Shown here piece after piece: positions 1,952-51,858 of a stretch of 64,000 bases of DNA. The notes under the pieces were generated by a model, which was given only the letters and a program-made list of their open reading frames with translations, searched no databases and was not told the origin of the DNA. Position 1 is the first letter of the stretch. The number at the start of each line of letters is the position of its first letter. Source of the stretch: Candidatus Gottesmanbacteria bacterium (GTDB taxonomy: Bacteria > Patescibacteriota > Microgenomatia > 2-02-FULL-39-11). The position numbers were made by a program, and so were the translations under genes. The DNA lies in the NCBI GenBank assembly GCA_016186795.1, contig JACPKY010000002.1, positions 716,943 to 780,942 on the forward strand, given 5' to 3'.

Positions 1952-1960
1952 TGCTATAAT
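1952..1960 (+). promoter_or_regulatory. Extended -10 element TGCTATAAT, 6 nt upstream of the ATG (predicted leaderless transcript)
   Basis: The sequence is cctgcTATAATgattacATG, with the -10 hexamer at 1955-1960 and the ATG at 1967. No Shine-Dalgarno is present. Confidence 0.45.
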
Positions 1961-1966
1961 GATTAC

Positions 1967-3049
1967 ATGGATGTGACTCAGAAACCTTTGGATACTGAGG
2001 AGTTAGCGAAACTTCGGAAAAAAGTTGCCGAGGCGCCCCTTCCACCAGAGCTCGCGGAAAAGGCTTCAACTCTTATCGATCGAACATTCTTAAGTCTTAA
2101 ATATGGAGGACAAATTACCGGATTTGATCTTGTTGCCAACTACATTGATTGGATTACGAGTCTACCGTGGAATGCGCGAAGCGATGACGTTTTGGATATA
2201 AACCATGCCAAAGACATCCTCGATAAACATCACCATGGGCTCACTGAAATAAAGGATAGAATTCTTGAGTATCTTTCGGTTATGAAACTAAACATCGAAC
2301 AATCGAAAACTCATCCTGATCAGCCGAATCATAACTTCATGCGGGCACCGATACTTTTTTTCGTCGGTCTCGTTGGTACGGGAAAAACTACAATTGCTCA
2401 AGCAATTGCCGAGGCGATGGGGAGAGCTTTTGTTCGTATTCCCTTTGGTGGTATGGGATCTGCACTTGATCTTCGTGGTGAATCACGCATCCATCCTGAT
2501 GCTGAAGTAGGTCTCGTCATGAAGGCATTACGAAGAGCAAAGACTAAAAATCCAGTCATCCTTCTTGATGAACTTGATCGTGTTACTGACCATGCACGTG
2601 CTGATATCATGGGTGTGCTTATTGAACTTCTCGATCCAGAACAAAACATCGCATTCACCGATCACTACATTGAGTTTCCTTTTGATCTATCCGAAGTTTT
2701 ATTCATAGCTACAGCCAATAATACTGGAAATATATCAACAGCAGTTATGGACAGACTCGAACCAATCCAGATGCCATCCTATAATGACGAGGAAAAAATT
2801 ATTATCGGAAAATCATATGTATTTCCCAAGGTGAGAGAGAGTGCTGGACTGTCATCTCAACAACTTCAAATCAATGATGATGTTTGGTCTCTTATTGTCC
2901 GCCCTTTAGGATTTGATTCAGGTATTCGGACATTAGAACGAACAATTAACGGAATTTGTCGAAAAGTTGCGCGAATGATCGTTGAAGGTAAAATTCAAAC
3001 TCTTCAAATAACTCAAGAGAATGTGAAACAATATCTTCCCACATGGTAA
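1967..3049 (+). CDS. Lon-family AAA+ ATPase lacking both N-terminal substrate domain and C-terminal peptidase domain
   Basis: YIDWITSLPWNARSDD...HHGLTEIKDRILEYLSV matches the Lon long-helix region. Walker A GLVGTGKTTIA and ...ILLDELDRV...LDPEQNIAFTDHYIEFPFDLSEVLFIATANN...MDRLEPIQMPSY match the Lon AAA+ module. The ORF ends about 360 aa in with no S16 peptidase domain. Confidence 0.7.
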   Translation: MDVTQKPLDTEELAKLRKKVAEAPLPPELAEKASTLIDRTFLSLKYGGQITGFDLVANYIDWITSLPWNARSDDVLDINHAKDILDKHHHGLTEIKDRILEYLSVMKLNIEQSKTHPDQPNHNFMRAPILFFVGLVGTGKTTIAQAIAEAMGRAFVRIPFGGMGSALDLRGESRIHPDAEVGLVMKALRRAKTKNPVILLDELDRVTDHARADIMGVLIELLDPEQNIAFTDHYIEFPFDLSEVLFIATANNTGNISTAVMDRLEPIQMPSYNDEEKIIIGKSYVFPKVRESAGLSSQQLQINDDVWSLIVRPLGFDSGIRTLERTINGICRKVARMIVEGKIQTLQITQENVKQYLPTW

Positions 3050-3630
3050 AAATAGATACCATTCTGGGTATTTTGTCTAGACAAATTGCTTCTTGCAAAC
3101 GGTGCCCTTTATACAAAACTGCAAATCATTCCGTCCCCGGAGAAGGATCCTCTCAATCATCAATCGTATTTGTAGGTGAAGCACCTGGAAGAAAAGAGGA
3201 TGAGACAGGGCGGCCGTTTGTAGGGAGAGCAGGTAAACTTCTCGAATATCTTTTACATTCAATCAATCTTCGTCGGAAGGATGTTTTTATCACAAGTATT
3301 CTGAAACATAGACCACCGAAGAATCGGACTCCGAAACCTCAAGAAATAAAAGCATGTAGCTATTGGTTTGTAAAGCAAATTGCAATTATTCAACCGAAAC
3401 TTATTATTCCACTCGGACGGTTTGGACTTGAATTTTTCCTTCCTCATGCAAAAATCACTCAGGTTCATGGTACAATAAAAGAAATACCGGGGAATCGGGG
3501 TTTACGTATTTTTCCGATGTTTCATCCAGCGGCAGGACTGAGGAGTTTAAAGCGAAAAAAAATTCTATTTGACGATTTTCAAATTCTCAAACACGTTCTT
3601 GATAATGAGCATTTTTCTCTCTCCCACTAA
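3043..3630 (+). CDS. Uracil-DNA glycosylase, family 4
   Basis: CKRCPLY...IVFVGEAPGRKEDETGRPFVGRAGKLL...FITSILKHRPPKNRTP..E are the family-4 UDG motifs (GEAPG, the Fe-S Cys ligands, HRPP). Confidence 0.8.
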   Translation: MVKIDTILGILSRQIASCKRCPLYKTANHSVPGEGSSQSSIVFVGEAPGRKEDETGRPFVGRAGKLLEYLLHSINLRRKDVFITSILKHRPPKNRTPKPQEIKACSYWFVKQIAIIQPKLIIPLGRFGLEFFLPHAKITQVHGTIKEIPGNRGLRIFPMFHPAAGLRSLKRKKILFDDFQILKHVLDNEHFSLSH

Positions 3631-5323
3631 GAAACCAGACGAAAAAAATCCATCTTCCTACCTTCGACTTATCCCACTCGGAGGTGTTGGAGACGTGACA
3701 AAAAATATGTATGTGTATGAGTACTGGAAATCTCCACGTGAATTATCAGACATCCTCATTGTTGACTGTGGAATTGGATTTCCCGATGAGTTCATGTATG
3801 GAATTGATCTTGTCATTCCTGATATTTCATATCTTCGAGATAAAAAAGAAAAGATACGTGGAATAGTATTGACTCATGGACATGAAGACCATATTGGAGC
3901 ACTCCCCTATATACTTCCTCACCTGAAAGTCCCGGTATATGGAACAAAACTCACAGCGGCTCTTGCTGAAGTGAAGCTTAAAGATTTTGGTCTCCACACA
4001 CACGTTTCGACTGTTGATACAAACAAAATTCTTCCTATTGGTCCATTTTCCATTGAATTTGTCCATGTTACTCATTCCATTCCAGATGCAACAAATCTTA
4101 TTCTCCGAAATCCCGTAGGCACCATCTACCATGGAAGTGATTTCAAATTCGATTGGACACCAATTGATGGAAAACAAACAGACGTCGGCAAAATCGCCCG
4201 AGCTTCTTCTGAAGGAATCTTATGCCTCCTTTCTGATTGTGTACGAGTTGAATCACCCGGATACACGCTTTCTGAGCAGGTTATTGAAGATACGCTTGAA
4301 AAAGAGTTGAAAGACTGCCCTGGAAAATTTATTTTTACCACACAATCATCAAATATTTCTCGAATTCAGCAGGCGATTAATGTTGCACTCCGAAACCAGA
4401 GAAAAATTGCATTTTTAGGAAGATCAATCGTCAAAAATGTTGATGTTGCCAAAAAACTCGGGTACCTCGAATTCCCAGATGTATTCATTGTTGAGGAAAA
4501 AAATATCAAGCATCTTCCTCCAAAAAATCTCATGCTAATTGTCACGGGAAGTCAAGCTCAACCAAACTCAGTATTATCGAGAATTGCTGAAGGGGTGCAT
4601 AAATTCGTATCAATTACTTCCGGAGATGTCGTTGTTTTTTCTGCAGATCCCATCCCTGGATATGAGAACTCTGTTCATAATCTCATCGATGTATTAACTG
4701 CAGCTGGTGCCAGGGTTAGTTACTCGGAAATTACTGACGAGCTGCATGTCTCTGGACATGGTGCGGCAAACGACCTTGCGCTTATGCTCGGACTTACAAA
4801 ACCGAAACACATTCTCCCAATTGGAGGAACATTCAGGCAAATGAAGCACTATGCCGAACTTGCGAAGAAAATGGGATATAAAGACCATGCCATTCTCCTG
4901 CCAAATGGAGGAAATATCATTGAATTTCGAGCGAATCAAACGGCAAAAATTTCAGGAAATATTGAGCTAAAAAATGTCATGGTCGATGGTCTCGGAGTTG
5001 GAGACATCGGAAATGTTGTCCTTCGAGATCGACAAACGATGGCCAATGAAGGAATTGTTGTCGTTGTTGTTCCTATTGAACAAAGCAGTGGAAAAGTTAC
5101 CGCAGAACCAGATATTATTTCCCGTGGTTTTGTTTATATGAAAGAATCTACAAAGTTGATCGAAACGGCAAAGAGAGTCATTATAAACTCGTTGCGGCTC
5201 AGAAAAGGGAGAATTATCGATTGGCAGTTTGTCAGAAAACAAATTGAGGGGAATTTAGAAGAATTCCTTTATAAAGAAACTCACCGAAGACCTCTCATTA
5301 TTTCCGTTGTCATAGAAGTATAA
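3605..5323 (+). CDS. rnj: Ribonuclease J (metallo-beta-lactamase/beta-CASP)
   Basis: LRLIPLGGVGDVTKNMYVYEY...ILIVDCGIGFPD...IVLTHGHEDHIGALPYIL carries the HxHxDH motif, and the C-terminal beta-CASP region is typical RNase J. Start moved to the internal Met. Confidence 0.85.
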   Translation: MSIFLSPTKKPDEKNPSSYLRLIPLGGVGDVTKNMYVYEYWKSPRELSDILIVDCGIGFPDEFMYGIDLVIPDISYLRDKKEKIRGIVLTHGHEDHIGALPYILPHLKVPVYGTKLTAALAEVKLKDFGLHTHVSTVDTNKILPIGPFSIEFVHVTHSIPDATNLILRNPVGTIYHGSDFKFDWTPIDGKQTDVGKIARASSEGILCLLSDCVRVESPGYTLSEQVIEDTLEKELKDCPGKFIFTTQSSNISRIQQAINVALRNQRKIAFLGRSIVKNVDVAKKLGYLEFPDVFIVEEKNIKHLPPKNLMLIVTGSQAQPNSVLSRIAEGVHKFVSITSGDVVVFSADPIPGYENSVHNLIDVLTAAGARVSYSEITDELHVSGHGAANDLALMLGLTKPKHILPIGGTFRQMKHYAELAKKMGYKDHAILLPNGGNIIEFRANQTAKISGNIELKNVMVDGLGVGDIGNVVLRDRQTMANEGIVVVVVPIEQSSGKVTAEPDIISRGFVYMKESTKLIETAKRVIINSLRLRKGRIIDWQFVRKQIEGNLEEFLYKETHRRPLIISVVIEV

Positions 5324-8620: not shown

Positions 8621-8966
8621 ACGCTTTTTAATAGGATTTATTTTCGGTAGTATTTTTGCGCTATTTTTTATTCTCTTTTTCGGATCAAAAAATGGACGCA
8701 GCCTTCTTGAGAAGCTTCTTGATGATGAAGAAGCGTTCGAAAAATCTTTGAGAGGAAAACTTTTGGAATTTCGTAACTTTGGTAATAGACGTATCCTTCC
8801 TTCCGATCATATCCAATCTCCTCTTAACGATCTTTCGAAGAACGACAGTGCATTTATGAAGAATCTATCTGCTGATTTTCCCCAGTCCAAGGAGGAAAAA
8901 CGGCTCTCGTTTACAAAATCAATGAAACATTTTTTTAAGAAAAACGGGAAAATCCTCACTTCCTAG
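8601..8966 (+). CDS. YtxH-like small membrane protein
   Basis: RFLIGFIFGSIFALFFILFFGSKNGRSLLEKLLDDEE resembles the YtxH-family N-terminus (GfllG...APksG). Confidence 0.4.
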   Translation: MEIDQSKRFLIGFIFGSIFALFFILFFGSKNGRSLLEKLLDDEEAFEKSLRGKLLEFRNFGNRRILPSDHIQSPLNDLSKNDSAFMKNLSADFPQSKEEKRLSFTKSMKHFFKKNGKILTS

Positions 8967-9456
8967 GAAGTCTCGTTTGGAGTTCTACAATCGATTCATC
9001 CATAACTCTCAATATCTCCTGAATGATTGATTCAGCCTCAGAGAAAGAAAGTGCTCGGAAGTTATGAGGGAAATAATGGAATACGAGATTTCTCCCCTGT
9101 TTCCAAATCGACCACATGCGATCGGCCAGAATTCTGTCGCCTGTTGCTTCAACAACCTTGTCATAAATAGATTCCCATCGAAGATGTTTTTCTAAGTGTG
9201 GGTTTAAAGCTCTCCCAATTCTGAAGTGATCACCACCATACTGTTCCTTCGTAATAAAAGAACAATCAAGAAATAACTGTTTTAGAAATCCTTCATATGC
9301 CTTGGCAAATGGAAAAACAACGTAGGAATAATCGGATATTTCTAACCGAGGATGTTCAGTTATGTCGTGAAGGAGAAATAATCCTTCCTTTATCAATCCC
9401 TTTTGATTCGGAGAAAGGTATTCCCAAATACGTGCGTTTTCATCTATCTCAACCAT
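8956..9456 (-). CDS. Hypothetical protein; possible HEPN-fold (RNxxxH) domain
   Basis: 166 aa, all-alpha in character, with a C-terminal ...WSIWKQGRNLVFHYF... giving an R-N-x3-H motif reminiscent of HEPN/Abi2-type RNases. No partner gene is recognised. Confidence 0.3.
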   Translation of the reverse strand: MVEIDENARIWEYLSPNQKGLIKEGLFLLHDITEHPRLEISDYSYVVFPFAKAYEGFLKQLFLDCSFITKEQYGGDHFRIGRALNPHLEKHLRWESIYDKVVEATGDRILADRMWSIWKQGRNLVFHYFPHNFRALSFSEAESIIQEILRVMDESIVELQTRLPRK

Positions 9457-14722: not shown

Positions 14723-16576
14723 ATGACCCATAAAGAAGTTAGAAAAAAATTTATCTCGTTTTATAAAGGAAAAAGACATGTAGAAATCCCATCGGCTTCC
14801 CTTGTTCCCGAAAATGACCCTACTACCCTCTTTACGAGTTCAGGCATGCAACCTCTTGTACCCTACCTTCTTGGGGAAAAACATCCTTCAGGTACACGTA
14901 TTGTTAATAGTCAAAAATGTTTCCGTGCACAAGACATAGATGAAGTGGGCGATAACAGGCATACAACATTTTTTGAAATGCTCGGCAATTGGTCACTTGG
15001 AGACTATTTTAAGGAAAATCAACTCCCTTGGTTTTTTGAATTTTTAACGGATGAATTACATCTTGATCCGAAGAGACTATATATAAGTGTTTTTGAGGGA
15101 AATGAATTTGTCCCAAAGGATAATGAATCCATTAAGATTTGGAAAGAACTCTTCTCCCAGGTTGGAATTGAGGCAAAAGAAGGAGAAAGAATTTTTTCGT
15201 ATGGTGTAGATAAAAACTGGTGGTCCCGCTCAGGTACACCAGACAAAATGCCTCCGGGTGAACCAGGAGGTCCTGACAGTGAGGTATTTTATGACTTTGG
15301 AATTGAGAGAAAATTCCATGAAAATTCTCCATGGAAAAATAAGCCTTGTCATCCAAACTGTGAATGTGGCCGGTTCTTAGAGATTGGAAATTCTGTATTT
15401 ATGGAATACCAAAAACAACAGAACGGAAGTTTTAAAGAATTACCGCAAAAAAATGTAGATTTTGGTGGAGGACTTGAGAGATTAGTTGCTGCAACGAATG
15501 ATAATCCTGATATGTTTCAAATAGATTTGTTTTCAACCGCAATTAAGACTTTGGAAGCTATTACCAAGACGCCTTCAAATTACAAAATACATCCGCGTCC
15601 TTACAGAATAATCTCTGATCATTTAAGAGCTGCAATTTTTTTGGTTGATAGCGGAGTAGAGCCTTCAAACAAGCTGCATGGATACGTTTTAAGACGCTTA
15701 ATAAGACGGGCAATGATCCAAGCAAGAGAATTAGGTATGATGGGTGATGAATGGCTTTCAAATGCAATCCCTGAGTTTATTTCCCAGTATTCTCAAATAT
15801 ACCCATCTGTTACGAAAAATACACCAGAAATCAATCAAGTCATTACTGCAGAAGTAGATAAATTCAGAAAAACTATAGATCGGGGCTTAAGAGAATTTGA
15901 AAAACTAAAAGATAACCAGCTTACTGGATCAACTGCATTTAATTTATACCAAAGTTATGGATTCCCTTTAGAAATTATAAAAGAGCTATATTTACAAAAA
16001 GGAGTGACTCTGAATGAACTAGAATTTAGCGAAGCGCAAAAAACTCATGCTAATCTATCAAGAAAAGTTACAAGTAGACTTTTTAAAGGAGGACTGGTTG
16101 ATCAAAGCGAAGCTGTCGTAAAACTTCATACGGCAACACATCTGCTACAACAAGCATTAAGAGAAGTATTAGGTAGTCACGTACGGCAAAAAGGCAGCAA
16201 TATTACAGCAGAACGTCTCCGTTTCGACTTCACTCATCCGGAAAAAATCTCAAATGAAACTATTGAAAAAATCGAACATCTCGTCAATAAAAAAATTGAT
16301 AAAAACCTGACAGTGTCGGTGGAAATCGTCCCGCTTAATAAGGCTATTGAAGAAGGAGCCCTAACCGTTCCGGGCACAACATACCCTGAACAGGTAAAAG
16401 TCTACTCTATTGGGAACTTCTCAAAAGAGGTCTGTGGAGGACCTCATGTTGACTTTACAGCTACCATAGGTTCGTTTAAGATAGTAAAAGAAGAGGGAAT
16501 TTCCCAAGGTGTAAGACGCATATACGCCAAAGTATCTTCTGATCATGTCAATACTAGGAAAAATCATGCCCAGTAG
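14723..16576 (+). CDS. alaS: Alanyl-tRNA synthetase (catalytic and editing domains; C-terminal C-Ala domain absent)
   Basis: N-terminal FISFYKGKRHVEIPSASLVP...FTSSGMQP...GNWSLGDYFK, and the editing-domain Zn motifs HTATHLL (HxxxH) and CGGPHV (CxxxH). At 617 aa it is well short of the ~875 aa full-length enzyme. Confidence 0.9.
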   Translation: MTHKEVRKKFISFYKGKRHVEIPSASLVPENDPTTLFTSSGMQPLVPYLLGEKHPSGTRIVNSQKCFRAQDIDEVGDNRHTTFFEMLGNWSLGDYFKENQLPWFFEFLTDELHLDPKRLYISVFEGNEFVPKDNESIKIWKELFSQVGIEAKEGERIFSYGVDKNWWSRSGTPDKMPPGEPGGPDSEVFYDFGIERKFHENSPWKNKPCHPNCECGRFLEIGNSVFMEYQKQQNGSFKELPQKNVDFGGGLERLVAATNDNPDMFQIDLFSTAIKTLEAITKTPSNYKIHPRPYRIISDHLRAAIFLVDSGVEPSNKLHGYVLRRLIRRAMIQARELGMMGDEWLSNAIPEFISQYSQIYPSVTKNTPEINQVITAEVDKFRKTIDRGLREFEKLKDNQLTGSTAFNLYQSYGFPLEIIKELYLQKGVTLNELEFSEAQKTHANLSRKVTSRLFKGGLVDQSEAVVKLHTATHLLQQALREVLGSHVRQKGSNITAERLRFDFTHPEKISNETIEKIEHLVNKKIDKNLTVSVEIVPLNKAIEEGALTVPGTTYPEQVKVYSIGNFSKEVCGGPHVDFTATIGSFKIVKEEGISQGVRRIYAKVSSDHVNTRKNHAQ

Positions 16577-18641
16577 TGAGTCGAAGGAGTACTTCCTTAT
16601 TCTTGGCATGGAAGAAAGGCGGATTACTGCAGCCGTTGCAAAGCTTTCTGGAAACGAAATTACAATTCTCGGAACAGGCGAGGGTGAATGGAATAAAGGA
16701 GATAATGCATCAGACGTTGCAGATATTGCTATTTCTGCTGCAGAAAAAAATCTAAAAGAGAGCGTCCTTCTTGAAAAAGTTATTTTTGGACTTCCCATAG
16801 ACTTTCTCGAAAATGATGCTATTAAACCGGAACATCTCGTAACGCTAAAAACAATTGCGAAGGAACTTGATTTAAAACCGAGTGGGTTTATTGAGTATCC
16901 TCAAGCATTTGCATACTACCTTGAATCAAAGGAAGGTTCTGCTCCAACACTTCTTCTCTTTTCAATAGGATCTACGGATATTACTGTCTCTCTTATCCGG
17001 GTTGGCAAATTAGAAAAAAATAGTACGCAACCTCGAAGCGAATCTTTCACTGACGATATAACCCGTATTGTCAATACTTTTAAGGATGAAATTCTTCCCT
17101 CTCGAATACTTATTTATGATCGGACACAAAAAGAGAATGTAGAAAATATTCGGGAGGAGCTATTACGATTCTCCTGGCATAAGTACTCATCATTTCTCCA
17201 TACCCCAAAAGTTGAGACACTCCCTGAAAATGTGGGAACTCTCGCTCTCGTTGAAGCAGCGGGAGGAAGTATCTTAAAATTGATGCAAGAGGAGATTGAG
17301 GAATCTCCTCCAAAAGATGAAAATTTCGGGTTTGTAAAGCATGCAGAAAAAAAGGGCACGTCGGAGAAAGAATTGGAAACTGAAATCGAGAAAAAAAGAG
17401 AGCCATTAAAATCTTTGCGAAATTTGCCTCTCCTTTCGAATCTTTTGGGAAACATCTCAAAAATTTCTCTCCCTAAACTGGCTCTCTTTGAATCTTTTTC
17501 AGGGAGAAAACTCTTTCTTATTATTCCATTCATTGTCCTTACTCTTTTTCTTGTTGCAATTGGAATGAGAATTTTTTTCTACTCCCCAAAAGCTGAAATT
17601 CATTTCATTACATACCCTATTTCGACATCAAAACGTATTGCGGTCCTGTTTACAACTGAATTGAATCGTTCTTCTGAATCAAACGTCATTATTGCAACTC
17701 CGATAAACGTTGAAACAAGTGGTGAAAAGGCTGTTGCAACAACCGGAAAATCAAAAATTGGAGAAGCCGCCAAAGGCGAAGTAACTATTTATAATAAAAC
17801 GCTTGCAGGAAAGACTTTTCCAAAAGGAATAATTCTCACAACCGACTCTCTACAGTTTAGCCTTGATCAAGATGTAAACGTCGCCTCTGCATCGGATACC
17901 GGAGAAGGACTTACATTTGGCAAAATAACATCGAAAATTACCGCGCGTGAGATTGGCCCGGAGGGAAATATACCGGCTGGTCGGAATTTTACATTCAAAG
18001 ATTTTCCTGAATCACAATATTATGCAAAAAATGTGGAAAAACTAACTGGTGGCACAAGCCGTGAAGTCTCAAGTGTGTCAAAAAATGATCAAGATGGACT
18101 CCTTACAGCTCTTTCTAACGAACTTATACAAAAGGCGAGACAGGAAATTACTGGTAAAATTCACCAAGATGAAAAGATACTTGATGCTTCAATGAAAGAA
18201 ACCGTTAAGAACAAAAATTACAACAAAGATGTTGGTGCTGAAGCAAAAGAATTAACTCTTCAGGGAACACTGGAACTTTCCGCACTTGTTTACAAAAACT
18301 CTGATATAACAATACTCTCGAGTACAAATCGATCGGAAATCCCATCAGGGTATACACTTGATACTCTACGAACTACTGTCCGAATTGGTGACGTAACGAT
18401 TGATAAAAAAGGTGATTATACAGGAGAAGCCTCGATTACTTCCTATTTCATCCCCTCGTTTGATATACCTTCACTCAAAGCGAAACTTGTTGGAAAATCT
18501 TACACGGATGTCAAGTCATTCCTTGCCTCTGTGGAAAACGTCGCTGGCTTTGAAATTGTTGCCTTTCAAACGCCACCGTTTTTTGGAAATAGACTCCCGC
18601 TCCGAAGAGATAACATCTCCATCTCTGTAGTCCCTCGATAA
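16545..18641 (+). CDS. Large bitopic membrane protein of unknown function (cytoplasmic N-terminal domain, one TM, about 350-aa extracytoplasmic domain)
   Basis: One TM (LFLIIPFIVLTLFLVAIGMRIFFY) at about residue 325 and an acidic linker. The N-terminal region weakly resembles the actin-like ATPase first motif (FLILGMEE...ITILGTGEG). The start may be the downstream Met at 16608, after the alaS stop. Confidence 0.35.
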   Translation: MSILGKIMPSSESKEYFLILGMEERRITAAVAKLSGNEITILGTGEGEWNKGDNASDVADIAISAAEKNLKESVLLEKVIFGLPIDFLENDAIKPEHLVTLKTIAKELDLKPSGFIEYPQAFAYYLESKEGSAPTLLLFSIGSTDITVSLIRVGKLEKNSTQPRSESFTDDITRIVNTFKDEILPSRILIYDRTQKENVENIREELLRFSWHKYSSFLHTPKVETLPENVGTLALVEAAGGSILKLMQEEIEESPPKDENFGFVKHAEKKGTSEKELETEIEKKREPLKSLRNLPLLSNLLGNISKISLPKLALFESFSGRKLFLIIPFIVLTLFLVAIGMRIFFYSPKAEIHFITYPISTSKRIAVLFTTELNRSSESNVIIATPINVETSGEKAVATTGKSKIGEAAKGEVTIYNKTLAGKTFPKGIILTTDSLQFSLDQDVNVASASDTGEGLTFGKITSKITAREIGPEGNIPAGRNFTFKDFPESQYYAKNVEKLTGGTSREVSSVSKNDQDGLLTALSNELIQKARQEITGKIHQDEKILDASMKETVKNKNYNKDVGAEAKELTLQGTLELSALVYKNSDITILSSTNRSEIPSGYTLDTLRTTVRIGDVTIDKKGDYTGEASITSYFIPSFDIPSLKAKLVGKSYTDVKSFLASVENVAGFEIVAFQTPPFFGNRLPLRRDNISISVVPR

Positions 18642-23068: not shown

Positions 23069-24970
23069 TTACTCCACTACTTCCCCCTCTTGCACATCTT
23101 CTTTCTTCGACTTTTTCTCATCTTTTTTCTCCCCGTTCCCTTTCTCCTCTTGTTTTGTCTCTTTTCCTGTTTGAGGTTGTTGTTGATACATCGACTGACC
23201 TATCTTTTGCAGAGAATCTGAAAGATCTTTTGTTTTTGCCTCAAGATCTTCTTTTGTACCAGTATCAAGTATTGATTTAAGGGCTGTAATCTTTTCCTCT
23301 ACCTCTTTTTTGATATCGGGAGATACCTTCTCACCTGCATCTTTAACTGATTTCTCTGCAACATAGATCATGTTATCAGCTTTATTGCGCACCTCTATCA
23401 TTTCTTTCTTTTTCGAATCCTCCGATGCATGGGCTTCCGCTTCTTTCGTCATCTTCTCAATCTCATCTTTTGAAAGACCGGTTGAACCGGTTATTTTAAT
23501 ACTCTGAGATTTCCCTGTCGCTTTATCTTTTGCGGAAACACTTAATATTCCATTGGCATCAATATCAAACATCACCTCAACTTGGGGAATCCCACGAGGT
23601 GCAGGTGGAATACCATCAAGAATGAATCGTCCAAGTGATTTATTATCTGCTGCCATTGGTCGTTCTCCTTGGAGCACATGGACTTCAACCGACGTCTGGT
23701 TATCCGCAGCAGTTGAAAAGATCTCTGATTTAGATGTCGGTACAGTTGTATTCCTCTGAATAAGCGGTGTCATAACTCCACCAAGCGTTTCGACACCAAG
23801 AGTTAACGGTGTAACATCAAGAAGCACAACATCTTTCACGTCTCCAGTGAGTACCCCTGCTTGGACGGCAGCACCAACTGCAACAACCTCATCTGGATTT
23901 ACCGATTTATTTGGTTCTTTCCCAAAAAAGTTCTTTACTACCTCGGTGACCTTTGGCATTCTGGTCATTCCACCAACCAAGACAACTTCGTCAATATCGC
24001 TTTTTGTAATTTTTGCATCTTTAAGAACCGCGCCAACCGGTTCCAAGGATTTATCAATTAGACCTCCGACTAAGCTTTCCAATTTGGAGCGGGTAAGTTT
24101 TTTCACCAAATGGAGCGGTCCCTCTTTCCCTTGAGTAATAAAGGGAAGATTTACCTCTGCCTCAAGTGCAGTTGAAAGCTCTATCTTTGCCTTTTCGGCT
24201 GCGTCTCGAAGCCTTTGCAGAGCCTGAGGATCTCTCCGCAGATCTACTCCGTTTTCTTTCTTAAATTCATCCGCAAGGAAATCAAGAATCACTTTATCAA
24301 AATCATCTCCTCCGAGATGTGTATCTCCATTTGTTGCTTTCACTTCATACACACACTCACCAAGTTCAAGTACTGAGATATCAAACGTACCACCACCAAG
24401 ATCGTACACCGCAACCGTATGCGCATGTTTCTTATCAAGACCGTATGCCAAAGCTGCAGCTGTTGGTTCATTCAGAATCCGTTTGACAGTGAGTCCCGCA
24501 ATTTCTCCTGCTTGTTTGGTTGCTTGTCTTTGAGAGTCATCGAAGTATGCAGGAACAGTAATAACTGCTTCAGTTACTTTCTGACCAAGATACCCTTCGG
24601 CATCTGCTTTAATTTTTTGTAAAATCATGGCTGAGATCTCTTGAGGAGTAAACGTTCTTCCCTCAACCTCAACAACCGCCATTCCATCTCGACCCTCTTT
24701 AATAACGTATGGAAGCCATTTTATATCATGCTGTACTGATTTATCGTTAAACTTTCTCCCCATGAGTCTTTTGATAGAAAATATTGTCGACTTGGGGTTT
24801 ATTACCATTTGCCGTTTCGCAACATCTCCCACTATTCGTTTGATTGGATCAACAACAGATGGAATGACGTTTCGGCCCTCAGAGGAATGGATGACTTTAG
24901 GATTTCCTCCCTCCATAACTGCTACACAGCTATTCGTTGTACCTAAATCAATACCGATTATTTTTGACAT
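23069..24970 (-). CDS. dnaK: Chaperone DnaK (Hsp70)
   Basis: [33 protein letters not shown], and a C-terminal lid region. A strong Shine-Dalgarno (AAGGAGG) lies upstream. Confidence 0.95.
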
Positions 24971-25008: not shown

Positions 25009-25524
25009 TTAATTTGATGATTTTTCAGATACTTCTGCTTCCTTTAATTCGTCTTTTTTCTTTCCAACGATTACTTTTGCCGGTCTTAAAAGTTTCCCTC
25101 TATAAAAGTACGCTTTCCCAAGTTCTCCTAAAACTTCATTATCTTTTCCATTTTCAACTTCTCTCACCTCAATACACTCCATCGTATGCGGGTCATACAT
25201 TGTTCCAACGACTATTTTATGCGTGACACCGTATCCTTGCAGTACATCATGAAATTGCAATCTTACTGACTTTAACCCTTGATCTTCTCTATACGGGTCA
25301 TGTTTTAGCATCTCATCAAATACATCAATAATTGGTAATAATTTCAAAACTAGTTGTTCTTCTAACCGATTTGTTAATTCTTTCTTTTCTTCTTGTACTC
25401 TTTTTTCTAAATTTTGATAGTCAGCGAGTGCCCGAAGATATTTTCCTTTCCAGACATTTTCTTCTTTCTCACTCTGAAGAGCTTTTGAACCGTCGTGCTT
25501 TTTACTTTGTATTTTCATCACCAA
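25009..25524 (-). CDS. grpE: Nucleotide exchange factor GrpE
   Basis: A coiled-coil N-terminus and C-terminal beta-domain typical of GrpE (...VGTMYDPHTMECIEVRE...). It has a TTG start and sits between hrcA and dnaK. Confidence 0.8.
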   Translation of the reverse strand: MVMKIQSKKHDGSKALQSEKEENVWKGKYLRALADYQNLEKRVQEEKKELTNRLEEQLVLKLLPIIDVFDEMLKHDPYREDQGLKSVRLQFHDVLQGYGVTHKIVVGTMYDPHTMECIEVREVENGKDNEVLGELGKAYFYRGKLLRPAKVIVGKKKDELKEAEVSEKSSN

Positions 25525-26249
25525 TTTGCCGCAACTTCATTAATGAGATTTCCCATATACCGAACGAGTGGAATGATTTTCGGATAATTTAATCGAGAAG
25601 GACCAATGACACCAATGACGCCTTGATGATGTGGCGAAGAAATCTTGGTAAATACTCCCCCACATTGATTGAGAAACTGCCGCCCCAGATCGTCACCGAG
25701 GAGTACTGAAAGAGGTTCTTCATTTGACGTTATAGAACTTGCGACATCCCACCAAAACTCATACTCATCAAGAGTATTGAGTAAATGTTTGGTGATATCA
25801 ATATCAAAAAATTCCGGCATATCGAGAATATTTGATATACCTGAGGAATAAAGATGGCCCTCATCAGTTGCTGCCAGTGACATCGTTTTTGTATTTTTTG
25901 CAAGAGCCCGTGTTGCCTCCCTTAAGAGTTTATCCGTTTCTTCTCGGTAATCCCAAATTTTTTGTTTTACAGTCACTTCCTCTGTCACCGAAAGTTCCTT
26001 TGTCTTCATGAGCTTCTCAACATACAATCTCATTGCTTCAGGAGTGGGCGATCGACCAGCTGAAGTATAAGGCTGTTTTAAATATCCATACTGGGTAAGC
26101 TTCACCATCTCATTACGAATTGTAGCCGGTGAAACACCAAGGTTATACTTTTTATCCAATGTTTCAGATCCCACGGGTTCGGCGGTTTCAATAAACTCTT
26201 CTATAATTACTCGCAGTATCTGAAGTTGTCTTTCACTCAGAGAATTCAT
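25518..26249 (-). CDS. hrcA: Heat-inducible transcription repressor HrcA
   Basis: MNSLSERQLQILRVIIEEFIETAEPVGSETL...ATIRNEM winged-HTH N-terminus. The gene order hrcA-grpE-dnaK-dnaJ matches the canonical operon. Confidence 0.8.
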   Translation of the reverse strand: MNSLSERQLQILRVIIEEFIETAEPVGSETLDKKYNLGVSPATIRNEMVKLTQYGYLKQPYTSAGRSPTPEAMRLYVEKLMKTKELSVTEEVTVKQKIWDYREETDKLLREATRALAKNTKTMSLAATDEGHLYSSGISNILDMPEFFDIDITKHLLNTLDEYEFWWDVASSITSNEEPLSVLLGDDLGRQFLNQCGGVFTKISSPHHQGVIGVIGPSRLNYPKIIPLVRYMGNLINEVAANW

Positions 26250-26276
26250 AGATCATCACTGGTCACAGATTGTAAT

Positions 26277-26303
26277 TAGCACTAAGATATCATGACTGCT
26301 AAT
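26277..26303. promoter_or_regulatory. CIRCE operator (HrcA binding site)
   Basis: TTAGCACTA-agatatcat-GACTGCTAA matches the consensus TTAGCACTC-N9-GAGTGCTAA at 8/9 and 8/9 positions. It lies about 28 bp upstream of the hrcA start, in the spacer shared with the divergent hydrolase gene. Coordinates are approximate, within 1 nt. Confidence 0.75.

Positions 26304-50202: not shown

Positions 50203-51858
<1,656 letters not shown>

Follow-up and report, generated by a model that had tools for sequence, protein, structure and literature searches.

A 64-kb stretch of DNA from a Candidatus Gottesmanbacteria bacterium (64,000 nucleotides, referred to here as the window) encodes a protein of 360 amino acids that corresponds to the AAA+ ATPase module of the protease LonA and lacks its peptidase. 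The open reading frame (ORF) starts with ATG and lies at positions 1967..3049 on the forward strand. It is almost certainly no defective lon gene but encodes a functional, stand-alone ATPase, since hundreds of species of ultra-small Patescibacteria have conserved the short form. Judged from its sequence, the product descends from, and works like, the AAA+ module of LonA and lacks what defines the Lon protease family; on the same basis, Microgenomates, Dojkabacteria and other Patescibacteria have LonA in the form of this short ATPase. The overall reading that we favour, and consider likely, is that of a ring-forming, non-proteolytic, Lon-derived remodelling ATPase, and the ATPase probably has no peptidase partner.

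A Lon-type AAA+ ORF without substrate-binding N-domain or S16 peptidase domain had been described from the DNA letters, in what we call the original prediction, and this observation was borne out by Pfam, NCBIfam and the Protein Data Bank (PDB). Pfam matched AAA at residues 131-267 (E 5.4e-18) and Lon_lid at residues 292-342 (E 1.3e-12) and nothing else; neither LON_substr_bdg nor Lon_C gave a Pfam match in the 360-residue protein. The NCBIfam model TIGR00763 'lon', an equivalog model with a curated cutoff of 608.05 bits, aligned over its positions 251-571 of 795 with 316.4 bits, and the protein therefore does not qualify as a whole LonA. All strong PDB sequence matches were LonA, among them B. 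subtilis Lon (3m6a, E 1.9e-73), and the Lon-named matches at E <= 1e-3 were all labelled Lon or mitochondrial Lon (leaving aside weak, lid-only matches, 5e7s and 4ypm). Residues 250-579 of E. coli Lon (6u5z) aligned with residues 12-357 in the PDB sequence search. The ATPase thus spans LonA residues ~250-580, comprising a three-helix bundle, the AAA+ α/β domain and the lid, and is 39-40% identical to the AAA+ modules of B. subtilis and E. coli Lon. An AlphaFold2 model (predicted local distance difference test score, pLDDT, 84.5; predicted template modelling score 0.79) matched LonA throughout its top Foldseek hits. Its template modelling (TM) score against the E. coli Lon 235-584 crystallisation construct (PDB 6N2I), an almost exact structural counterpart of the ATPase, was 0.86 when normalised to the query and 0.92 when normalised to the target. 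Pfam and Foldseek therefore agree on a Lon-type AAA+ module with a Lon lid. An identical protein (P0001) is recorded as 'AAA family ATPase [Candidatus Gottesmanbacteria bacterium]'. The features of the gene, with residue conservation taken from the census given below, are as follows.

1967..3049, + strand: coding sequence of the stand-alone Lon-type AAA+ ATPase, 360 amino acids plus stop
1991..2161, + strand: three-helix bundle, residues 9-65, equivalent to α8-α10 of the LonA HI(CC) domain (AlphaFold2 model, alignment)
2291..2332, + strand: family-specific variable insertion, residues 109-122 (~14 in number), ahead of β-strand 1 of the ATPase domain (alignment with B. subtilis and E. coli Lon)
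2366..2389, + strand: Walker A GLVGTGKT, residues 134-141, with K140 equivalent to E. coli Lon K362; K and T invariant
2486..2512, + strand: rebuilt pore-1 loop R-I-H-P-D-A-E-V-G, residues 174-182 (residue census)
2555..2572, + strand: Walker B VILLDE, residues 197-202, with D201/E202 equivalent to E. coli Lon D423/E424; D/E invariant in 281 sequences
2717..2755, + strand: sensor-1 N251 (equivalent to N473) through arginine finger R263 (equivalent to R484), both invariant
2777..3037, + strand: α/lid subdomain, residues 271-357, including sensor-2 R321 at nucleotides 2927-2929 (Pfam Lon_lid 292-342, alignment)
3035..3046, + strand: conserved C-terminal tail L-P-T-W-COOH; P358 and W360 at >=90% in the Gottesmanbacteria-type set

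The boundaries of the protein differ from those first proposed. The original prediction placed the start of the ORF right at the long helix of Lon. In E. coli Lon this helix, α7, comprises residues 189-243 (PMC6722904, from which the HI(CC) domain boundaries were also taken), and the alignment begins at about residue 250, past α7. The long coiled-coil helix and the N-domain are thus absent, and only the last three helices of HI(CC) are kept, modelled at residues 9-22, 27-45 and 51-65. The end of the protein had been placed about 100 residues beyond the α-subdomain; the final ~90 residues are in fact the α/lid subdomain, to which the isolated Lon α-domain structures 1qzm, 1x37 and 4git align (residues 269-357), and the stop codon follows 3 residues past the end of the Lon lid alignment. 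The proposed alignment to the central part of LonA was correct, although the motif strings quoted for it are those of the Lon consensus and the ORF itself reads HHGL and EYLSV. The insertion at residues 109-122, the sole one in the AAA+ module, is short, variable and hydrophilic, and is the least confident internal stretch of the model (pLDDT 57-66). The C-terminal tail reads [FY]LP[TS][WY] or [FY]I[EQ]xY in most Microgenomates and EFLS in the Roizmanbacteria type, and low-complexity N-terminal extensions are common among distant family members.

The short form proved to be widely conserved. Four independent assemblies, from as many sequencing runs, contained the same 360-residue gene followed by genes for a uracil-DNA glycosylase (UDG) and ribonuclease J (RNase J), and the stop codon is therefore genuine. 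A scan of one genome per GTDB species matched at least 530 encoding stretches, and 80 loci were retrieved; these were assigned to Gottesman-, Shapiro-, Roizman-, Levy-, Woese-, Beckwith-, Ames-, Curtiss-, Chisholm- and Cerribacteria and to unclassified Microgenomates or Patescibacteria. In 79 of the 80 loci the ORF could be extracted, and all of these encoded 338-388 amino acids, with a stop codon 0-3 residues after the end of the query. The original prediction's question of whether related genomes share the truncated form was thereby answered in the affirmative. The best 120 database relatives (70-86% identity, 324-388 amino acids) consisted of AAA and Lon_lid and never contained Lon_C, the single exception in length being P0063, with 547 amino acids, a proline-rich N-terminal extension and the same C-terminus. 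The cluster representatives P0122 through P0233, which are 40-57% identical, were protease-less as well, and so were 120 relatives of a distant member, P0164, on a branch at 40% identity; those with names belong to Dojkabacteria, 'Patescibacteria group' and, in one case, Nomurabacteria. Compared with 14 relatives, the gene showed 0.075-0.30 nonsynonymous differences per site (pN), with synonymous differences (pS) saturated at ~0.8.

These data bear directly on whether the gene is a recent pseudogene, or a normal lon gene shortened by a sequencing or assembly artefact. The truncated domain content is the sole point in favour of such an origin. Against it stand the identical gene in independent assemblies, a length kept in hundreds of species, strong purifying selection and the absence of a protease-domain remnant from every reading frame, as judged with a Lon_C profile hidden Markov model (HMM); we regard this explanation as refuted.

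The search for a peptidase was made with a Lon_C-region profile HMM built from 95 Lon P domains, which in a control detected 110 of the 151 sequences of a representative set. Six-frame translations of the window and of 90 related loci, 1.42 Mb in all, were searched. Neither an S16 peptidase domain (best E 6.8) nor a Lon N-region (HMM, best E 1.1) was found in these translations, although control Lons were correctly picked up by both HMMs. A query for the P domain of E. coli Lon, validated on full-length Lons, likewise gave no match in the window by tblastn or phmmer. The S16 domain with its Ser-Lys dyad, the N-domain and the long helix, by which LonA is recognised, are accordingly missing from the protein. 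Within the window and the 90 loci, a frameshifted remnant and a linked partner gene are ruled out, which disposes of the suggestion that a frameshift might hide a downstream peptidase. A split Lon, also raised in the original prediction, found no local support, as no S16 domain lay within 10 kb of the gene in any of the 90 loci. No full-length Lon was encoded at the syntenic position in the related loci examined, which speaks against a recent pseudogene.

In a neighbour-joining tree of 132 AAA+ modules, 34 of the 35 protease-less sequences formed one group with no protease-bearing Lon inside. The nearest named full-length Lons came from Anaerolineales, Clostridiales, Deinococcus and Deltaproteobacteria, and P0168, also among the closest in the tree, clearly comes from an organism with GC-rich DNA.

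A residue census was taken over 100 Microgenomates-type and 113 distant-branch members (213 family members) and 68 single-module full-length Lons, 281 sequences in total. Walker A K140 and T141 were invariant in 213/213 protease-less proteins and 68/68 Lons, and the Walker B Asp-Glu pair and sensor-2 R321 (equivalent to E. coli Lon R542) were likewise invariant. The arginine finger and sensor-2, named in the original prediction as residues whose conservation would be informative, were unchanged in all 213 family members. The protein thus carries the residues of a competent AAA+ ATPase, namely the Walker A Lys, the Walker B Asp-Glu, the sensor-1 Asn, the arginine finger and the sensor-2 Arg (E. 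coli Lon positions K362, D423/E424, N473, R484 and R542 from PMC6722904).

The pore-1 loop is where the family departs from Lon. True Lons read T-Y-[VIL]-G-[AS]-[MLI]-P-G, with the tyrosine present in 68/68, whereas the protease-less family reads x-x-P-D-A-E-[PV]-G. In the Gottesmanbacteria protein, H176 stands for Y398, D178 for G400 and E180 for M402 of E. coli Lon, and the T-Y-[VI]-G aromatic of LonA is consequently absent. Across the family the Y398 position is occupied by H, R, F, S, Y, Q or N, so that an aromatic residue is not conserved. The G400 position is D in 79 of the 100 Microgenomates-type and 84 of the 113 distant-branch sequences, and the M402 position is E in 98/100 and 113/113, respectively. 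Since the D and E positions are conserved in their new form, the loop is not decaying; it has become an acidic loop, re-specified and under its own constraint. A conserved acidic-for-aromatic exchange suggests a different mode of client engagement.

From these observations a course of events can be proposed. An ancestral LonA would have lost three parts, namely the substrate-binding domain at its N-terminus, the long helix of the coiled coil and the S16 peptidase. The remaining ATPase would still assemble as a ring and hydrolyse ATP, because all ATP-site residues are invariant, including the arginine finger, which acts across the subunit interface. With its rebuilt acidic pore loop it would no longer feed unfolded polypeptide to a protease, and its role is more likely that of an ATP-driven remodeller or chaperone without proteolysis than that of the unfoldase of a protease, since it has neither a peptidase nor a conserved aromatic gripper. 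The interpretation given in the original prediction therefore survives in part. A retained Lon-like ATPase without proteolysis is supported by the short form at 40-86% identity across Patescibacteria with intact ATPase residues; degeneration or recent pseudogene formation is excluded by a pN as low as 0.075 against a saturated pS of ~0.8 and by the same stop in four independent assemblies; and the term unfoldase is doubtful, given a pore-1 aromatic that is present in 68/68 true Lons and is not conserved in the protease-less family.

Several points weigh against the favoured reading. The bootstrap value for the protease-less clade was only 51/100. The protease domain of LonA provides much of the hexamer interface, and a ring without it is an assumption. 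Phenylalanine or tyrosine occupies the pore-1 position in 21 of the 100 Microgenomates-type sequences, in some lineages, and threading may persist in this part of the family. An S16 peptidase or a second, full-length Lon may sit in the remaining ~94% of the 1.12-Mb genome, outside the search. The function of the ATPase is, finally, deduced from sequence and a structural model.

Comparison with known systems places the protein closest to LonA (endopeptidase La, MEROPS S16). It has the same three-helix bundle, α/β domain and Lon-type lid, and the same Walker A and B, sensor-1, arginine finger and sensor-2; it differs in the missing N-domain, long helix and S16 domain, in the replaced pore-1 loop, in the ~14-residue insertion and in the conserved C-terminal tail. 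Placement with LonB or LonC, considered in the original prediction, was not upheld: neither the transmembrane or other AAA+ insertion of LonB nor the degenerate ATPase motifs of LonC were found, and the protein matches LonA with its ATPase motifs intact. In LonC and in the Lon-like domains of RadA/Sms and ComM, which are Lon-derived, the protease fold is kept and the Lon ATPase is lost or replaced. The protease-less family is the mirror image of these, with the ATPase kept and the protease dropped. As a single-module AAA+ protein encoded apart from a peptidase, the ATPase resembles HslU of HslU-HslV and ClpX of ClpX-ClpP; it differs in that no partner peptidase gene is linked to it, and HslU and ClpX keep the aromatic pore-1 residue, unlike the protease-less family. 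Protease-dead mitochondrial Lon/Pim1 reportedly acts as a chaperone, a precedent for a protease-independent, ATP-dependent function of Lon. That precedent concerns full-length Lon that was engineered by point mutation and has a normal pore loop, whereas the present family is natural, domain-deleted and widely conserved. The ATPase shares with these unfoldases and with Lon its place in the HCLR clade (clade assignment from bioRxiv 10.1101/617159).

Membership in a defence system was considered and rejected. A PADLOC defence-protein search of the ATPase gave no match to BrxL of BREX and only weak, generic P-loop matches (best DolB, E 2.4e-5, 21.7 bits). A separate observation concerns the cluster representatives: about 35 of the best 150 are Lons with two or three tandem AAA+ modules, each with a Lon lid, and one Lon_C (for example P0121, 1113 amino acids, from a Candidatus Dependentiae bacterium, and P0123, P0124 and P0126-P0130).

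The gene and its neighbours on the same strand are arranged as follows.

1952..1960, + strand: extended -10 promoter-like element TGCTATAAT, of the TGnTATAAT type (identified by sequence)
3043..3630, + strand: family-4 UDG gene (Pfam UDG, E 2.8e-34; TIGR00758, 188.6 bits against a cutoff of 125.3 bits)
3605..5323, + strand: RNase J gene (Pfam Lactamase_B, RNase_J_b_CASP, RMMBL and RNase_J_C; start according to the gene call in locus L001 and to the sequence)

The element TGCTATAAT ends 6 nt ahead of the ATPase ATG, before which no Shine-Dalgarno sequence was found, and the ATPase transcript is therefore probably leaderless or preceded by a very short leader. A TGnTATAAT element 6-12 nt ahead of the start codon, again without a Shine-Dalgarno sequence, is present in the Gottesmanbacteria-type loci L010-L020 and L090, and TATACT or TATTAT variants occupy the same position in other lineages, which suggests that TGCTATAAT is a dedicated promoter for the ATPase gene. 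The next gene is the UDG gene, as the original prediction stated, and the stop of the one and the start of the other overlap by 7 nt (ATGGTAA, 3043-3049). The UDG gene in turn shares its last 26 nt with the RNase J gene, whose ATG lies at 3605, and no terminator-like site was found on the + strand from 1967 to 5323. Because each frame overlaps the next, translation of the ATPase, UDG and RNase J is probably coupled, with the three forming a single unit, and co-transcription of the three genes would be expected. After RNase J follow FtsK, a RodZ-like HTH_25 protein and, further on, alanyl-tRNA synthetase (AlaRS).

In species-representative Microgenomates the order of genes is strongly conserved and runs NusA, initiation factor IF-2, a DHH protein, S15, polynucleotide phosphorylase (PNPase), the ATPase, optionally UDG, RNase J, FtsK, the RodZ-like protein, a small membrane/YtxH protein and AlaRS (loci L010-L089, for example L039 4408-6603 and L014 4098-4367). 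PNPase lies directly upstream of the ATPase in 55/79 loci, and RNase J lies downstream on the same strand in 58/69, with no gene between the two in 37. Of 69 loci, 12 have UDG as the following gene and 20 (~29%) have it within 2.5 kb. In the genome studied here, glycosyltransferase genes replace the block upstream of the ATPase.

Ten loci of a Roizmanbacteria type (L043, L050, L054, L059, L062, L066, L075, L080, L081 and L085) have the protease-less Lon gene outside the ribonuclease block, with a divergent GroES gene ~130 nt upstream in nine and a convergent RNaseH_like gene (PF04308) downstream in nine. The intergenic region that separates GroES from the ATPase gene contained no CIRCE element in these loci. 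Heat-shock regulation of the ATPase gene through CIRCE was considered and set aside, as the only CIRCE-like element of the window precedes hrcA instead. This inverted repeat, TTAGCACTAAGATATCATGACTGCTAA, lies at 26276-26302, 27 nt upstream of hrcA, with 2 mismatches and 0.02 occurrences expected by chance. On the reverse strand, hrcA (25518-26249) is followed by a grpE-sized ORF (25009-25524) and dnaK (23069-24970), with groEL (50203-51843) further on. The genome thus has an HrcA/CIRCE chaperone regulon of the classical kind, to which the Lon-like gene does not belong.

Three more specific functions have to be set against the favoured reading. These readings are not mutually exclusive with it and their likelihoods are not meant to add up to unity, since a role in RNA metabolism or in DNA repair would be a specific version of a stand-alone ATPase. 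In a split Lon, the ATPase would work with an S16 or other peptidase encoded elsewhere, in the manner of HslU-HslV or ClpX-ClpP, and its conserved C-terminal aromatic tail might serve as a docking site. HslU docks onto HslV by its C-terminal tails; the ATPase ends exactly at the boundary between the Lon ATPase and protease domains, its extreme C-terminus [FY]LP[TS][WY] is conserved in most Microgenomates, and the S16 search covered the window and related loci. Partner genes are usually linked, however, and no S16 domain was present in the 64-kb window or within 10 kb of the gene in the 90 loci, which represent many lineages; the pore-1 aromatic needed for polypeptide translocation is not conserved, and the C-terminal motif is missing in Roizmanbacteria-type and distant branches. 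We therefore think a split Lon improbable.

A part in RNA metabolism is a somewhat better, if still doubtful, possibility. The ATPase would be tied to the flanking exoribonucleases and would remodel RNA-protein complexes or their basic protein components, as an analogue of a degradosome helicase. Such a role is compatible with the favoured reading and takes its evidence solely from gene order: the frequent PNPase and RNase J neighbours are separated by short gaps or overlaps, the RNase J linkage is kept in this genome despite the glycosyltransferase genes that replace the upstream block, and the same linkage occurs in L005 and L009, relatives whose aligned region is 40-55% identical. It may be speculated that the acidic pore loop could engage basic RNA-binding proteins. 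The nusA-infB-rpsO-pnp ... ftsK-alaS block could, on the other hand, be no more than an ancestral arrangement passed on by inheritance; the Roizmanbacteria type, with its GroES neighbour, lacks the linkage, as do L008, L025, L077 and L084; and the protein is acidic (isoelectric point 5.7, equal to that of true Lon AAA+ modules) with no RNA-binding domain recognisable by Pfam. A bolder form of this idea, which we rate as unlikely, is that Microgenomates, Dojkabacteria and related Patescibacteria abandoned Lon proteolysis and that the motor, through its acidic pore loop, became the ATP-dependent remodelling subunit of an RNA-degrading machine around PNPase and RNase J; this would parallel the DEAD-box helicase of known degradosomes. 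Less probable than these is a DNA-repair accessory working with the translationally coupled UDG. The 7-nt gene overlap and the recurrence of UDG nearby, including in relatives at 43-46% identity (L006, L007), speak for it, but UDG is absent from this position in ~70% of loci and the pore loop is acidic. The basic patch R306/K308/K310/K311, through which E. coli Lon binds DNA, is not conserved in the protease-less family; nor is it conserved in most full-length Lons, and it is thus uninformative either way on DNA binding.

Some further observations were made in and around the gene block. A 698-residue protein encoded at 16545-18641 (+) of the window, overlapping the AlaRS gene by ~30 nt, gave a weak Baseplate_J-like match, and such a protein recurs in the block in other loci (L063 17628-19814, 728 amino acids, beside AlaRS; L008 11253-12446, 397 amino acids, upstream of FtsK). 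A 166-residue ORF at 8956-9456 (-) gave weak matches to HEPN RNase LS and RnlA toxin domains (HEPN_RnaseLS 29.3 bits against a cutoff of 29) and may be a toxin-antitoxin remnant. Loci L011, L018, L020, L024, L026 and ~25 more are titled 'uncultured Gammaproteobacteria bacterium', 'uncultured Pseudomonadales bacterium' or 'Candidatus Bathyarchaeia archaeon'; on species-representative metagenome-assembled genomes that carry the Microgenomates block, such titles look like placeholders or mislabels.

The protease-less family is a real, conserved variant of a well-known protein family and is apparently undescribed, nothing on it having been found, among about 8 million full texts, in the literature on Lon in the Candidate Phyla Radiation, Patescibacteria, Microgenomates or Saccharibacteria. 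Interest in it is tempered by the facts that domain loss is common in evolution and that generic database entries already exist. Family members are labelled 'ATP-dependent Lon protease' by JGI and 'AAA family ATPase' by NCBI; the former misleads and could cause the capacity of these organisms for proteolysis to be overrated. According to a recent classification, an ATPase and a protease domain are present in all Lons (PMC9569914), and in the genome-reduced Mycoplasma pneumoniae Lon is one of only two ATP-dependent proteases, both of them essential (PMC7737663). In the present case the protease has been dropped and the Lon motor retained under strong selection throughout a whole radiation of bacteria that are just as reduced, which provides a natural test case for the function of the Lon ATPase without proteolysis. 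A superphylum-wide, protease-less Lon motor with an acidic pore loop, encoded between the genes for PNPase and RNase J, would come as a surprise to specialists on Lon and is directly testable.

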